64,000 nucleotides of DNA from Candidatus Latescibacterota bacterium (GCA_965198115.1 OZ240241.1:1600001-1664000); one strand, 5' to 3'. Positions 968-7,091 are shown, counted from the first letter of the stretch. The notes: a model not told the origin generated them from the sequence alone. Numbers and translations: made by a program.

Positions 968-3221
968 GTGCAAAGCAAGTCCGATGCAGCACCCGCAACA
1001 GAATTCACACCGGATGAGCGCGGGTTTGTCCGGCACTGGGTCTGCGCCGGCCCCACCGCGACTCCCTCGTCGTCACAAGCACCACTGCGCGAAAGTAGTA
1101 TCCTCGTCACACCACTCCGCCTACCGACGGCCGTGACAGCAGGGGGACCCGGGCCGGAGGGCAGGCGGTGGCTCTTCCACTCACCGGGGTCGAACTGGTT
1201 TCTCGATCGCAGCGGGTTCTATCACAGCCACCACCGCCTCGAACTCTGGGCCGCCACAGACTTCGTCTCAAGCAGTGCCGTCGACTTGAGTTTTCGTGTT
1301 TGGACCCCGAACACGCTCGACCTCTGGTGCGGTTCCTCGCATCGTCTGAGGTTCGAAACGCCTTCACCTGGCAGGACCACGCCCTCAGCCATCAACGCGC
1401 TGCCGCTTCTGCCCGGACGGACACGCATCCTCGTCTATCTACAGGAACTGGCCGTACGCAACACGCCGTTCCAATTCGCCCTGGAAGTGATAGAGGGAGG
1501 GACGCTGAGCATCGCCGTGCCCGGAGACCCATCGCTCACGCCAGCGCTCGCCGCGATCGACGGTTGGCTCGAAACCGTGTCCTCGAATAGCAACCGACTG
1601 GTTGCGACCGCTGTCCCAACCGTTCCCGTCGATGTCATCCTGGATCGTGACGATGGAGCGATCCATCGATCCTGGCCCCACAATGAATCCGAATTGACCT
1701 GGCACGAAGATCGAATCACGGGCATCCAGCTCTCGGCGAGATTCGACGACCACAGACTCGAGCGGAGGTTCGAGCGCCCGATCGGCGATCGGTTGACTAC
1801 CCCGGGAGAGTCGTTGGACGATTTCCGTCTTCGCTATCTCGAGCACCTCGCCTTTACCGCGTCGGGAGACCATTCAGGCCTTGCTCGCCCGATACGCGCT
1901 CGACAAGCTCGATCGAGAAGCCGACGAGGAAGCCCTGCAAAATGCCCTCGACCACGTCGCAAAACGCCTGGACGGATCGGAAGATCACCTCGCCGTCATG
2001 ATCCGTCTCTACGCGCTTGGCTGGGGCCATCCCGAACAGCGCCGCCGGATCGAGCTCATTGTGACCGGCATCGACTGGGACAGCGAACTCGATACGGAAT
2101 CGTGAGGGAGGTCCCGCGAAGGTCAGGACCTGCTGCTCCGAACGTGCCGCTATCTCGCCGCAACACAGTTGCGGGAGGTCGCATTTTCCGATGCTGGAAG
2201 GACGGCCTCGGATCTGGCCGAATCGGGCCTCGAACAGTGCACATCGTGGCTAACGGAGCTGGAATCCAGCGGGTTTGAGACCTTCATGAGTGGGATTCAG
2301 ACGCCGATCACGATTGCCGCTCTGCTCAACGTGTGCGACTTCGCCCCGGATGGACAGCTGAAACAAAAAGCCTCCGCTCTGCTCGATCGTTTGCTGTATC
2401 AACTGGCCGAACACACGTTCGATGGCGTCACCGTCGGTCCCCAGGGAGATGCTGACCGGCGGGTCCTTTACCCGCATACCTCAGGAAGCCAGGGCCTCCT
2501 CTCGTGGGCGCTCGGAGAGGACATCGTCGAGTCGTTCAACCCCTGGGCGACCTTCCTCGCCACATCGGCCGCCTATCGATCGCCCCAGGACCTTCGAACT
2601 CACATCGATCGTCCCGTCAGTCGGACGTATTACGAAGCGGGGCTACCTATCACGATTCACAAAACGACATACGCCATGCTCTCGAGCGTGCGCATCGACG
2701 ATACACATCGGTCCGTAGACCGGAGACGGTCGGGTCACCTCTGGTGCGCCACCATCTCCAGTCGGTGCCACGTCTTCACGAACCATCCGTCGACACCCGG
2801 TGACGGCCACATCGGGCGCCCCGGATTCTGGCACGGGAACGGTGTGGTCCCCCGAGTCGCACAGGAGAAAAACGTCGTCTATCAGGTCTTCGACATCCCC
2901 GAAGATCACCCCATCGGGTTCACGCACGCGCACTGGCCCCTGGATGCGTTCGTGGAAACAGATGGGAAAGATGGGTGGCACTTCGGATTGGCAGAAAAGG
3001 GTCTCATCGGGCTCTGGTGCAGCGAGCCCACGCAGGTCGAAAGCGATATCCTCGTCGAGCGTGAGCTCCGAGCCTGGGGACGCCAGGTCGCGTGGATCTG
3101 CGTCTGTGGAGGGGCCGACGAGGGGCCCTTGACGGCGTTAGTCGATACGTGTGTCGCCAGTCGACCCGAATTCAGGCTTCCCACCCGCCAGCTCCTGTGG
3201 GAAGGCCAGGTCGTCCTGTGA
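968..3221 (+). pseudogene. Large hypothetical protein (possibly heparinase II/III-like), broken by a frameshift (~1880) and an in-frame TGA (2103-2105)
   Basis: ORF 968 turns low-complexity after ~1875. The next frame continues LARYALDKL...DTES*GRSREGQDLLLRTCRYLAA directly into ORF 2169-3221 (VFTNHP, RPGFWHGNGVVPRVAQ, FTHAHWP). Confidence 0.6.
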
Positions 3222-3252
3222 GGGACAGGGTCCGTCACGACAATAATGAGCA

Positions 3253-3304
3253 CGTGGGGATGAATCCCCACGCAACGACAGCGAAGCCCGCTGAAGCGGG
3301 CTAA
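3253..3304 (+). repeat. REP-like double-hairpin unit, copy 1
   Basis: cgtgggga-tgaa-tccccacg, spacer, then agcccgc-tgaa-gcgggct-aa. Same architecture as the copies at 4824 and 5390. Confidence 0.75.
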
Positions 3305-3319
3305 AACCAGGAACCCTTC

Positions 3320-4783
3320 ATGCCGACACCCAACATCGTTTACATCTGTTCGGACCAGCACAGCTTTCGCTTCACAGGCTACGCCGGTCATCCGCTGGTC
3401 CAATCGCCCAGCATGGATGCACTCGCCGAACGGGGAACCGTCTTCAGCAGCGCCTATTGTGGAAGCCCCGTCTGCGTGCCTGGACGTGCCTGTTTGATGA
3501 CGGGGATGTATCCATCCGACTGCAACTCGTTCTGCAACTCGACTGTCTGGGACGGCTCGTATCCAACCTGGGGCACCTTGATGGGCAAAGCCGGATACCA
3601 TTGTGTCGCCACGGGAAAGTTCGATCTGGACGCGGAGCGTGAGCTCGGTTTCGAGTGCATGACTGTCACCAACGGCCACGCGATCGACGCCGACATCACA
3701 TCGCTCTTCAGGCGGCCCTTGCTGGGATTTCGCAATGGTCAGCGGGCGGGTATGGATGGTGGAACGCGAGAAGAGCCCCATCGCGACAAGAAATACACCG
3801 ACATTGCGACAGATTGGATACACGAGAAATCGAGGGGTATCGACGGGCCCTGGCTGCTCTATGCGGGTTTCTCGCAGCCCCACTCTCCCTTTCGCTGCCT
3901 GCCCGAACACTTCGAAAAGTACCCGCTCGATCGCATCGACCTGCCTGACTTCACGAACGAAGAGCGGGAACAGATGCACGAGCCCTATCAGATGCGACGT
4001 TCGAACCCCTCGACCTCCGTTCCGGTCCCCGAACAGAATCTGCGTCGCATGCGAGCAGCCTACTACGGCATGATCACCGAACTCGACGACTACATCGGGC
4101 AGATTGTCGCAGCCCTCGAGTCGACCGGACAGCTCGACGACACGATCGTGCTCTACACCTCGGACCACGGCGAGTCGCTCGGTGAACACGATCTCTGGAC
4201 CAAGGGCAACATGTTCGAGGACTCTGCCCACATTCCCCTCGTGATGGCGGGGCCGGGCATCCCCTCTGGACAGACCGTCGACACCGCCGTGGCCCACGTC
4301 GACCTCGTTCCCACGATGCTCGACATCGCTGGGGGCGACACGCCCGACCACCTCCGCGGGCATTCACTCATCCCGTTAATGTCTGGAGAACCCGGCAACC
4401 ATCCAGGTTTCTCCTACACCGAGAGTCATTCCGGCGGCAATGTGACTGGATCCTACCTGATCCGGGAAGGCGACTGGAAGTACATTCACTTCACGTGGTT
4501 CGATGACCTGCTGTTCAACGTCGCCGAAGATCCGATGGAGAAGATCAACCGCATCGACGACCCAGACGTTTCCGAAATTCTCGACCGGCTGCGCGAGAGG
4601 CTGCACAGCCAAGTACAGCCCGAAGCGCTTACACGGCGCGCTTTCCAGGTTCAGCGGGACTTCCTCGATTCCTACGTGGCCTCGAAGACCGAAGATGAAC
4701 TCACCGCCGCCTTCGAGAGTCGGATGGGACCCGGTTTTGCGCGGGCCATGGCTGTGAAGTGCAAATCGGGCTCGATGGGTTAG
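3320..4783 (+). CDS. Sulfatase (choline-sulfatase-like, Cys-type)
   Basis: PNIVYICSDQH, CVPGRA (CxPxR), SDHGE motifs. Confidence 0.9.
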   Translation: MPTPNIVYICSDQHSFRFTGYAGHPLVQSPSMDALAERGTVFSSAYCGSPVCVPGRACLMTGMYPSDCNSFCNSTVWDGSYPTWGTLMGKAGYHCVATGKFDLDAERELGFECMTVTNGHAIDADITSLFRRPLLGFRNGQRAGMDGGTREEPHRDKKYTDIATDWIHEKSRGIDGPWLLYAGFSQPHSPFRCLPEHFEKYPLDRIDLPDFTNEEREQMHEPYQMRRSNPSTSVPVPEQNLRRMRAAYYGMITELDDYIGQIVAALESTGQLDDTIVLYTSDHGESLGEHDLWTKGNMFEDSAHIPLVMAGPGIPSGQTVDTAVAHVDLVPTMLDIAGGDTPDHLRGHSLIPLMSGEPGNHPGFSYTESHSGGNVTGSYLIREGDWKYIHFTWFDDLLFNVAEDPMEKINRIDDPDVSEILDRLRERLHSQVQPEALTRRAFQVQRDFLDSYVASKTEDELTAAFESRMGPGFARAMAVKCKSGSMG

Positions 4784-4823
4784 CACTCACTTCTGGAGCG
4801 TTCGGTTGCGGTGTTTTCGCCTC

Positions 4824-4872
4824 GTGTGCGCGGGGCTGAAGCCCCGCACACTATGTAGCGAAGCCGGCTCAG
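4824..4872 (+). repeat. REP-like double-hairpin unit, copy 2 (second hairpin degenerate)
   Basis: gcggggc-tgaa-gccccgc ... agcgaagccggctc, ending just before the tnpA stop codon. Confidence 0.7.
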
Positions 4873-4876
4873 ATCC

Positions 4877-5293
4877 TCAATCCTCGGAATCACAGTGTTC
4901 CATTCGGTCAATCGTTGATCCCTTGCTATGATGGAGCTTCTGATTTCGTACATAGCGAATGACGTCTTCTAGATCCCGTTCCGCGAACGTGAAAGCACCG
5001 TATCCCTGCTGCCATTTGAATGACGACTGTTTCATCGCTTTGTTCATGAAATGGGCAGAACTCCCTTTCAATTTTCCGAGCGCTTCCGAAACAGACACCG
5101 TCGCTCCCCAACTCGCTACAACGTGAATATGGTCTTCGGTTCCGTCCACGGCGAATATCCTATATCCGTAGGCTGGCCCCGTCGATCCCACATATTGATA
5201 CAGCCGCTCTTGTGTTGGTGAATGTATGAGTGGCTTACGTCGAGTTGTCGACCAGACCAGATGGTAATACAACTTCGTCCACGCTTTGGACAT
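4877..5293 (-). CDS. tnpA: IS200/IS605-family (RAYT-like) HUH tyrosine transposase
   Basis: YYHLVWST, HUH motif DHIH, KGSS, WQQGYGAF, catalytic Tyr in RYVRNQ. No tnpB adjacent. Confidence 0.88.
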   Translation of the reverse strand: MSKAWTKLYYHLVWSTTRRKPLIHSPTQERLYQYVGSTGPAYGYRIFAVDGTEDHIHVVASWGATVSVSEALGKLKGSSAHFMNKAMKQSSFKWQQGYGAFTFAERDLEDVIRYVRNQKLHHSKGSTIDRMEHCDSED

Positions 5294-5389
5294 TCTGTTC
5301 TCCTGCAAGTTGCTGTTGAAGGAACCTTTCCAGATCTTGGATAGATCAGCCTTGTCACAGGAGACCATTGCATAAACCGTGCCTCACAG

Positions 5390-5444
5390 TTAGCCCGCTT
5401 CAGCGGGCTTTGCTAGGCTGTGCGGGGCTTCAGCCCAGCACAGC
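5390..5444 (-). repeat. REP-like double-hairpin unit, copy 3 (inverted)
   Basis: Reverse complement reads gctgtgctgggc-tgaa-gccccgcacagc-ctagcaa-agcccgc-tgaa-gcgggct-aa. Confidence 0.75.
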
Positions 5445-5459
5445 AGAACAGATCAGGTA

Positions 5460-7091
5460 ATGTCACAATCAACTGACAAAAGCCCATCCAAAGAGCCCCT
5501 CCCCAATTTCCTCTGGATCTCCCTCGAGGACACGAGTCCGCGTTTCGGTTGCTATGGGGACACGCTTGCCCGCACGCCCAACCTCGACCGCCTCGCGAGT
5601 GAGGGGCGACGATACACGAACGCTTTTTCCACGGCGGGCGTCTGCGCGCCGAGTCGATCGGCCATCATCACCGGTGTCTACCAGACGTCGATGGGCACGC
5701 ATCACATGCGAACGACCCACACGAATCCGAACGCGCCGGAGTTGCCGACGCCCTATTCGGCCGTTCCCCCGCACTACGTAAAGACGATCACCGAGTACCT
5801 TCGAGCCGCCGGCTACTTTTGCACGAACAATAAGAAGACGGACTACCAGTTCACCCCACCGTTCACGGCGTGGGACGAGTTGGGCGACCACGCTCACTGG
5901 CGCAACCGAAGGCGACACGACCAGCCCTTCTTCGCGGTTTTCAACCCCACGGTCACCCACGAGAGCGGGATGTGGCCCAAGGAGGATGATCGTCCACCCA
6001 TCACGGATCCCGACAAGGTCGAGCTACCCCCCTACATTCCGGACACGCCGAAGTGTCGCGCGGCCTTGGCCAAACACTACGACAACCTCGAAATCGCAGA
6101 TGGGATTGTCGGAGACATTCTTGCCGAGCTCGACGAGGACGGCCTTGCCGACGACACGATCGTCATGATCTGGAGCGATCACGGCGAGGGCTTGCCGCGC
6201 GGGAAACGATGGCCCTACGACCGCGGCATCCGCATCCCCCTCATCGTACGTTGGCCGGGAGAGATCGAGCCCGGAGACGTATCGGACAACCTGGTAAGCC
6301 TGATCGATCTGGGCCCGACGCTCCTATCGCTGGGAGCCGATGTCCCTCGCCACTTACAAGGTCAGCCGTTTCTGGGGCCCAGAGCCGTAGAACGAGAATA
6401 CGTCTACGCGTCGAGGGACCGCCACGACGAGGCGTACGACATGGTTCGCGCCGTTCGAGACAAACGGTACAAGTACCTTCGCAACTTCTATCCCGAAAAG
6501 CCCTACCTCCTCTGGATCCCGTACCGAAACCGGCATCCTATGCTTCAGGAGATCTGGAGGTTACACCGTGAAGGGGGGCTCGAGGGTCCGCAGCAGCGGT
6601 TGGTGGATACGCATCGCCCGCCGGAAGAACTCTACGACACACACGCCGATCCGTGGGAGATCCACGACCTGTCGAAAAACCCGGCACATCGGGAAACTCT
6701 GATGCGGATGAGGGCCGCCCTAGATGAGTGGCGCCGCGAGGTGGGCGATATGGGCGTGGTGTCGGAAGAGGAAATGGTCGACGGTTGGTGGCCCAATGGT
6801 CGGCAACCGAGGACGGGCACGCCGACCTTCATCCCGATCGATCACGATCACGCAGGGACGGAGGCCGCACCCGAGGAAATCGCCCTAGAAGCGCCTGCAC
6901 TGCTTCAGATGCAGTGCGGGACACAGGGTGCGTCGATCGGCTACACGTTCGAAGAAGGGGACGAGGCTCGTTGGTTGTTGTATTCGGAGCCCCTTCGGCT
7001 GAATCCGGGCACCTACCGCCTCCGTGCGAAGGCCATCCGGATCGGGTATGAGGAGAGCGACGAGCGGGTGGGGACGTTCGAGGTGAGGTAG
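5460..7091 (+). CDS. Sulfatase (N-sulfoglucosamine sulfohydrolase-like) with C-terminal small beta domain
   Basis: PNFLWISLED, CAPSRS, SDHG, RDRHDE, EELYD motifs. Confidence 0.9.
   Translation: MSQSTDKSPSKEPLPNFLWISLEDTSPRFGCYGDTLARTPNLDRLASEGRRYTNAFSTAGVCAPSRSAIITGVYQTSMGTHHMRTTHTNPNAPELPTPYSAVPPHYVKTITEYLRAAGYFCTNNKKTDYQFTPPFTAWDELGDHAHWRNRRRHDQPFFAVFNPTVTHESGMWPKEDDRPPITDPDKVELPPYIPDTPKCRAALAKHYDNLEIADGIVGDILAELDEDGLADDTIVMIWSDHGEGLPRGKRWPYDRGIRIPLIVRWPGEIEPGDVSDNLVSLIDLGPTLLSLGADVPRHLQGQPFLGPRAVEREYVYASRDRHDEAYDMVRAVRDKRYKYLRNFYPEKPYLLWIPYRNRHPMLQEIWRLHREGGLEGPQQRLVDTHRPPEELYDTHADPWEIHDLSKNPAHRETLMRMRAALDEWRREVGDMGVVSEEEMVDGWWPNGRQPRTGTPTFIPIDHDHAGTEAAPEEIALEAPALLQMQCGTQGASIGYTFEEGDEARWLLYSEPLRLNPGTYRLRAKAIRIGYEESDERVGTFEVR

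Follow-up and report, generated by a model that had tools for sequence, protein, structure and literature searches.

A single-copy gene for a Y1 HUH transposase, tnpA, lies between inverted double-hairpin ends in the genome of a Candidatus Latescibacterota bacterium, and comparison with related genomes and proteins suggests that the encoded enzyme likely cuts single-stranded copies of these ends and has likely seeded them at 40 intergenic sites, with the neighbouring sulfatase gene as a bystander. On the comparative evidence, the reading we favour, and hold to be probable, is that of an IS200-type enzyme at the core of a REPtron-like system. The window analyzed here is a stretch of 64,000 nt from a one-contig genome of 8.43 Mb (G000), and the features of the locus are collected in Table 1.

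Table 1. Positions of tnpA, its end units and the neighbouring genes, counted from the first letter of the window.
Feature	Position	Strand	Remarks
tnpA, Y1 HUH transposase, IS200-related subclass 1.2	4877..5293	-	138 aa; motifs DHIH, FKWQ, YVRNQKLHH
Upstream end unit ("left"), CCCGC-type hairpin 2, complete	5390..5444	-	hairpin 2 at 5392-5409, facing tnpA
Downstream end unit ("right"), CCGGC-type	4824..4869	+	inverted relative to the upstream unit; hairpin 1 intact (loop 4837-4840)
Dispersed singleton unit, commonest (CCCGC) type	3252..3303	+	hairpin 1 at 3253-3272, hairpin 2 at 3285-3302
Sulfatase, resident gene of a syntenic sulfatase cluster	3320..4783	+	Pfam Sulfatase; outside the tnpA element
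Second sulfatase, far border of the tnpA slot	5460..7091	+	the G001 slot holds a BNR-repeat gene in place of tnpA

The element is ordered [hairpin1-hairpin2]-tnpA-[hairpin2-hairpin1], and its ends are inverted, with arms at 4827-4850 and 5419-5442. The open frame of tnpA runs intact over 4877-5368 on the minus strand (163 aa); a start at 5293 gives the 138-aa form recorded as the database protein P0001. Hairpin 2 of the upstream unit is full and its hairpin 1 carries one mismatch. Hairpin 2 of the downstream unit is cut down to AGCCGGCT, ending at 4869 with its inner half missing; to judge from full CCGGC-type copies, one copy of an internal 10-nt tandem repeat was likely lost by slippage. This leaves tnpA with a damaged right end. 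A first-pass annotation of this DNA had described a ~50-nt double-hairpin unit in three copies, two of them inverted around a solitary tnpA (4824+ and 5390-) and the third making direct repeats around the sulfatase. The inverted pair is present and the gene is indeed single-copy, and the unit is full at 3252-3303 and, apart from the mismatch just mentioned, at 5390-5444. The 4824 copy, on the other hand, lacks agcccgc-TGAA-gcgggct, and since it ends after AGCCGGCT, the direct repeats on either side of the sulfatase are not both full. Allowing up to three mismatches, hairpin 2 was found at 2 sites in the window (4 strand matches) against 0.05 expected, and the two full window units fold far better than their shuffles (z about -5.4 to -5.9). 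The unit at 3252-3303 occupies the gap between the sulfatase and its upstream neighbour and is no element end; the orthologous gap in G001, a genome of the same genus, does not contain it.

TnpA matches PF01797 (E 9.5e-24) and the IS200/IS605 NCBIfam model NF033573. As defined in the pertinent sections of Quentin et al. 2018 (PMC6006769), subclass 1.2 of TnpA-Y1 has the motifs DH[IV]H, WQ and YxxxQxxHH together with a conserved C-terminal domain (a 30-aa profile), and Table 1 of that paper lists no REP for it. All three motifs are present in TnpA, and the YxxxNP motif of RAYTs is absent, TnpA having YVRNQ; start and motifs are kept in 9 homologues. By these motifs, TnpA is an IS200-like enzyme of subclass 1.2 and not a RAYT. 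An AlphaFold model of TnpA (pLDDT 85.8), in which the C-terminal tail is short and of low confidence, is closest, as is the profile, to the TnpA proteins of ISDra2 and IS608 (E about 2e-9), with the E. coli RAYT 4ER8 further away (E 8e-6). The next tblastn match to tnpA in G000 has 26% identity, in line with the low copy number of subclass 1.2; neither the near-identical multiple copies of subclass 1.1 nor its non-inverted, one-strand end hairpins are found for this gene. The multicopy IS200s of the genome, where PF01797 has 75 matches, are ~25% identical to TnpA and have ends of their own. We excluded the possibility that the units are the ends of an ordinary multicopy IS200, tnpA being single-copy and the IS200 copies not being flanked by units: among 44 further tblastn matches, one lies 521 bp from a unit and the others at least 9.7 kb away.

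Beyond this genome, the wider protein family, counted together with IS200-like proteins, has 2,097 representatives at E<=1e-10. We computed a quick tree (110 rows, no bootstrap) and left it unrooted; as it contains no RAYT outgroup, we draw from it neither a root nor an order of events. Twelve canonical IS200/IS605 proteins form a separate branch in this tree (SH-aLRT 100), and TnpA groups with L001, L002, L045, L007, L018, L125 and L126 (support 96), the examined members of the group having the same end architecture with different stems. Viral contigs yielded 9 candidates, none of which is a relative; matches in phages were limited to 3 weak ones (25-29%), and 19 plasmid records gave only weak matches (<=33%).

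The double-hairpin unit, which had been taken for a three-copy feature, belongs to a dispersed family. With a profile made from 21 two-hairpin seeds, the 8.43-Mb genome yielded 49 matches to the ~52-nt unit at E<=1e-3 (two of them being one palindromic site) at 40 loci, and 63 matches at E<=1; the best match in the reversed genome had E=0.01. Wholly intergenic positions account for 38 of the 40 loci, and the other 2 touch a gene end, as judged with a crude gene caller that missed the window tnpA and clipped the start of the sulfatase (97 sulfatase genes were flagged from 154 profile matches). In each unit a stem of 8-9 bp is followed, after a short linker, by one of 7 bp, and both are capped by TRAA loops; the loops are 31 nt apart in 27/36 units, and conservation ends at the stem feet. 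The 27 full-length copies are all different (mean identity 76%), so any activity may be old. Hairpin 1 closes its loop with a C-G pair in 21 of them and with A-T in 6; at pair 3 of hairpin 2, 18 copies have C-G and 8 have G-C. The compensatory change first noted in hairpin 1 is therefore real and general across these copies; the supposedly conserved TGAA loop is instead TRAA (TGAA or TAAA). Template-switch correction of palindromes can be another source of compensatory changes. The strict two-hairpin pattern matches 15 times in G000 and not once in 40 relatives, and the profile detected no unit in 1.07 Mb of G001 (~5.6 Mb), including the 24 intervals syntenic to unit-bearing intervals of G000. 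The only Rfam match to the unit, a sub-threshold one to the CRISPR-DR28 direct repeat, was dismissed: it scores 25-26 bits against a gathering threshold of 35, and the copies are dispersed singles and doublets with no regular spacer array.

Hairpin 2 falls into a CCCGC type (31 copies), a CCGGC type (10) and one other copy, the first two being the types found upstream and downstream of tnpA, respectively. Singletons make up 31/40 loci and doublets 8/40. Every one of the 8 doublets joins a left-type to a right-type unit (random expectation 3e-4), inverted as around tnpA; 8 of the 10 full right-type copies lie inside doublets (right-type copies with a reduced hairpin 2 were read off the profile-search matches), and singletons favour the CCCGC type by 22 to 2. 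Because the doublets always contain one unit of each type in this order and the singletons are so skewed, the doublets resemble a tnpA element from which the gene is missing. Heterodimers could also be favoured if perfect palindromes are selected against. The family also singles out one strand, that with the TTYA loop. On this strand the foot of hairpin 2 is YAG in 41/41 cases. The earlier label "non-GTAG" is apt in that the foot of hairpin 1 is GTAG in only 8/42 cases and inapt in that it is NTAG in 28/42. Non-Watson-Crick pairs on the TTYA strand are G·T in 8 cases vs A·C in 3. The TTYA strand of the singletons lies on the G-rich strand in 22/31 cases (p=0.03, a weak bias in clustered loci), and 22/28 IS200 tnpA copies share that sense. 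Flank capture was rejected: in 861 pairwise comparisons of 5' flanks, shared sequence was found for a single pair, which is a segmental duplicate.

Inverted hairpin ends recur among homologues of TnpA. We sampled 95 homologue loci, namely the best 79 of 582 confirmed metagenome matches and 16 genome loci, of which 88 encode YxxxQxxHH. Among the 78 scorable loci of this sample, those with both flanks present, 48 have inverted repeats upstream and downstream of the gene, compared with 0/78 for shuffled flanks, 0/39 for distant flanks and 1/12 for IS200/IS605 loci; 30/78 have no inverted repeat at the threshold used, and 33/78 also score direct repeats. Hairpins with TRAA/TTYA loops were found at 42/78 loci (shuffled 1, distant 2/39), and since they also occur at 6/12 ordinary IS200/IS605 ends, the loop alone is not diagnostic. 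On the TTYA strand of the family, mispairs are G·T vs A·C by 18:1, with 33 other mismatches, and YAG stands 5' of the TTYA hairpin in 60/77 cases vs 8/74 on the other strand. The homologues are non-independent kin, and these family counts carry no p-value. Stems are family-specific, and the [hairpin1-hairpin2]-tnpA-[hairpin2-hairpin1] architecture recurs across the protein family. The description of subclass 1.2 as having no REPs or terminal structures thus fits neither the window element nor those 48 homologues. Values of dN/dS are about 0.1-0.2 in 6/7 homologue pairs, the seventh pair being near-identical; by this measure the gene is under purifying selection. At L001/L002, tnpA stays in synteny at dS 1.35. 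For L094/L099, L101/L119 and L077/L097, homology stops at the outer hairpins and the flanks are unrelated; as read from these alignments, tnpA is relocated together with its ends in such pairs.

Other genomes carry copies of the hairpins that flank their own tnpA: 22 in G036, where one locus (L231) is an array of inverted units, and 24 in G079. A third type, likewise flanking the tnpA of its host, has 25 copies in G042 and 8 in G041. The 16 hairpin copies of G080 are accompanied by a remnant of a closely similar tnpA and no intact subclass 1.2 tnpA. There are counter-cases as well. Hairpins without a subclass 1.2 tnpA were found in G077 (7 copies; genome 96% complete) and G078 (31 copies; 91% complete), G070 has 8 copies of the third hairpin type and no strong tnpA match, and 5 of the 10 other tnpA-positive genomes of the phylum have no match to the two hairpin patterns tried.

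The first-pass annotation had regarded the sulfatase as mobilized cargo, and a more general version of this proposal is that the units move enclosed catabolic genes as cassettes. It draws on a sulfatase adjoining units in 6/39 gaps, or 4/37 minus the focal gaps, vs a genome rate of 3.0% (p=0.024), on the absence of 3 of 8 bracketed genes (a mandelate-racemase family gene, a methyltransferase and an ECF sigma factor) from the syntenic position in G001, and on a 629-bp duplicate of 84% identity that begins at a doublet. Against local gaps, however, the enrichment next to sulfatase genes vanishes: the rate is 6.6% within 10 kb and 5.7% within 25 kb (p=0.27-0.32), with p=0.075 for gaps within 50 kb and p=0.049 within 100 kb. 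The baseline share of G000-only genes is already 29%, and extra or replaced DNA is found in 9/24 unit-bearing vs 170/646 unit-free syntenic intervals (p=0.24), two of the extra stretches being high-copy repeats with 82-92 BLAST matches. The 5 other bracketed genes, the focal sulfatase among them, are common to G001. There the sulfatase orthologue is 82% identical and collinear with its upstream genes and with the downstream window to at least 14 kb, at a distance of ~75% DNA identity at which intergenic DNA is too diverged for base-level alignment of empty sites. Because the gene is syntenic in a relative that lacks the repeats, an outcome that the annotation itself had named as decisive, it is not cargo; judged by synteny, it is an ordinary resident gene and a bystander of the element. 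Mobilization is refuted for this sulfatase and, as a general role of the units, is highly improbable; repeat-driven shuffling of sulfatases is not supported.

Two further explanations concern the relationship of the units to the enzyme. The units could be host repeats with another job, such as terminators or RNA-stabilizing hairpins, or could have been spread by another enzyme, tnpA having merely landed among them. Several other repeat families occur in the gaps that carry units, the gap of G001 orthologous to a G000 doublet contains a different subclass 1.2 pseudogene, the many other Y1 transposase copies offer alternative enzymes, and the repeats of G077 and G078 are orphans, all of which would suit such an origin. 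Yet the stem sequence follows the adjacent tnpA from genome to genome, the units do not flank other IS200 copies, their orientation relative to transcription is 7 sense and 11 antisense, and 4/40 lie between divergent genes with no significant depletion (p=0.16); we find this explanation quite improbable. An unlikely but more substantial candidate is a slow, still selfish IS with inverted multi-hairpin ends, the doublets being internally deleted MITE/PATE-like derivatives and the singletons debris, so that the same enzyme would act with no domestication and no REP replication at the level of the unit. The occurrence of the whole cassette in unrelated flanks in several homologue pairs speaks for it, as do the different gene in the tnpA slot of G001, the two tnpA copies of G036 (75% DNA identity) and three matches of G042, the left+right order reproduced in the doublets, and a patchy distribution in the phylum (11/168 genomes). 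It has to be set against the absence of near-identical tnpA copies within G000, G036 or G042, the lack of a viral-contig relative and the weakness of the plasmid matches, the long residence in synteny at L001/L002, and a ratio of about 1 gene per 48 units.

Under the REPtron-like reading, a mechanism can be proposed from the strand that the TTYA loop, YAG foot and G·T wobbles single out whatever the direction of transcription. As this strand is the antisense one on the upstream side of tnpA and the sense one on the downstream side, and as singletons show no transcribed-strand preference, these features point to ssDNA rather than mRNA. According to the relevant parts of PMC8266576, IS200/IS605 enzymes are strand-specific and bind terminal hairpins via loop bases, the cut site is chosen by a tetranucleotide 5' of the hairpin, and in one REP system the AG of GTAG selects CT. 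By analogy with IS608/ISDra2 and the RAYTs, TnpA would bind the TTYA hairpin on single-stranded DNA, for example on the lagging-strand template; the AG at the hairpin foot would guide its choice of a cut site near the unit, and a 5'-phosphotyrosine would be formed at Y114. Doublets or single units would be copied into other intergenic gaps, and the whole tnpA cassette only rarely, with singletons arising as decayed doublets or as units that moved alone. The weak strand bias of the singletons fits a replication-fork substrate; their predominance, unlike what is seen in REPIN-dominated systems, is a point against this reading. Among the joints in contigs from 3 runs of one study, two of which may derive from the source, none was informative, as they stem from contigs of repeats or paralogues that have 20-44 letters on a single side, and no circle junction or recent filled/empty pair was seen in those contigs or in comparison with G001, which is too distant for junctions.

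The system resembles several that have been described. Like REPtrons and RAYT-REPIN systems (E. coli TnpA-REP, groups 2 and 3), it has a single-copy HUH gene between inverted palindromes, dispersed intergenic copies, heterodimeric doublets, an AG-ending foot and TTYA loops as in several GTAG REPs; according to the portion of the supplement of PMC6006769 that treats them, TTTA/TTCA loops are frequent on the GTAG strand of GTAG REPs. It differs in its YxxxQ motif vs YxxxNP, in a model nearer to ISDra2/IS608, in its two-hairpin unit of fixed loop spacing, and in lacking a conserved GT[AG]G foot. The first-pass proposal of a REP/RAYT-like system therefore survives for the REPtron-like arrangement around an HUH transposase, with a single-copy tnpA and dispersed intergenic flanks, and fails for the enzyme. 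With IS200/IS605 elements (IS608, ISDra2) and PATEs, as presented in the sections of PMC3119063 concerned with them, it shares the fold, catalytic motifs, hairpin-marked ends, short gene-less derivatives and a similar strand bias. In those elements the left and right hairpins lie on one strand, inverted terminal repeats are lacking and near-identical copies are numerous, whereas the window element has inverted ends, a single-copy gene and conservation that stops at the hairpin feet. With subclass 1.2, as characterized in the pertinent parts of PMC6006769, the system has in common the motifs, short protein, low copy number and a position close to yet distinct from IS200 subclass 1.1; the inverted multi-hairpin ends, found in most homologues tested, and dispersed copies are what sets the present system apart.

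Earlier surveys bear on this family. The portions of Quentin et al. that treat REPs (PMC6006769) report them in five class-2 subclasses and none in 1.2, and the current view, as expressed in the passages of 10.1101/2021.07.10.451892 on this point, is that REPINs occur only with RAYT groups 2 and 3. The "IS200 Group 3" of Bertels et al. 2017 has, in the parts of that paper devoted to it (PMC5581495), no duplicates, no plasmid members and abundant flanking 16-mers, and was termed RAYT-like. This IS200-family group is probably the subclass 1.2 family studied here, and the enzyme-repeat association would therefore have been foreshadowed, statistically, in the 2017 survey; the repeat structure is not described in those parts. 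Quentin et al. remark, in the relevant section, that they had no Group 3 sequences available and that 1.2 is absent from the description by Bertels (PMC6006769). The pertinent sections of PMC3733652, PMC3184786, PMC3119063 and 10.1101/2021.07.10.451892 hold no description of these ends, and neither does the other literature searched, a scope outside which subscription papers, ISfinder and bioRxiv supplements may hold one.

We put at about even the chance that subclass 1.2 as a whole represents a second kind of REP system, widespread but overlooked, in which inverted multi-hairpin ends of the YAG/TTYA kind were acquired independently by an IS200-type enzyme that replicates short left+right doublets, themselves non-autonomous. 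It would then stand between IS200 and the domesticated RAYT-REPIN systems, either as a living intermediate or as a parallel origin, and would comprise many specificity pairs of enzyme and hairpin. The finding bears on the question of how REP/REPIN repeats originated from IS200-like elements and how they spread. An IS200-like enzyme combined with REPtron-like DNA offers a direct test, with a 138-aa protein and a 52-nt substrate whose active strand is predicted, and with further material in naturally occurring left/right variants and in cognate enzyme-hairpin pairs, of which there are dozens. In phyla that have been little studied, it would also explain one class of intergenic repeats.

At three genes bracketed by the double-hairpin unit (see table), the source genome, G000, differs from the same-genus relative, G001. 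Judged from the sequences compared, this difference could reflect either a gain or a loss.

Genes bracketed by units in G000 (coordinates on contig C1)
Gene	Coordinates	Units	Syntenic position in G001
Mandelate-racemase-family gene	1043928-1045034	both sides	without the gene
Methyltransferase	3901819-3902394	both sides	without the gene
ECF sigma factor	3367758-3368342	both sides	without the gene

The sole match to the TnpA query in G001 is locus L010 (G001:C46:165330-165701), a subclass 1.2-type tnpA that has one internal stop and a different type of hairpin. We observed that L010 occupies the same intergenic gap as an inverted pair of units, or doublet, in G000 (C1:3913785-3913898), and this gap is possibly a shared target or an ancestral site. 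Among relatives of TnpA, many proteins of 270-300 aa (P0010, P0012-P0026 and others) each carry two tandem TnpA matches and, from this arrangement, could be single-chain dimers of the HUH transposase.

The source genome is very transposon-rich, with 75 PF01797 hits genome-wide, and its GC-skew sign reversals near 4.8-5.1 and 5.65-5.9 Mb suggest inversions. A high-copy element with 92 BLAST hits (C1:1039835-1041155), which looks IS630-like by eye, is flanked by the two hairpins of what appears to be one split unit. In the window, ORFs 968-2278 and 2169-3221 have no Pfam match and together look like one gene in pieces (968-3221); their G001 counterpart is likewise spread over several frames.

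Five units (C1:915322, 5379252, 5707277, 5772803 and 5792595) have a loop spacing of 55 nt; in the left arm of their hairpin 2, three bases give way to a 27-nt piece similar to another abundant repeat, which has a TTCGAC..CGCTCAG core and 104 genome-wide matches. In the duplicate pair 1772909/5772803, this piece is present in one copy and missing from the other. Related TGAA hairpins with other stem types occur at C1:3895027-3895066, 2600240 and 5396169, and two of the three sit between tandem paralogues of the window's sulfatase, which are 55-56% identical to it, the match of the first being limited to residues 3-342. Hairpin 2 at window positions 3280-3303 and 5391-5414 matches the Rfam CRISPR-DR28 consensus at 25-26 bits, against a threshold of 35, and CRISPR-DR28 may itself be a repeat of the same kind as the unit rather than a CRISPR repeat.
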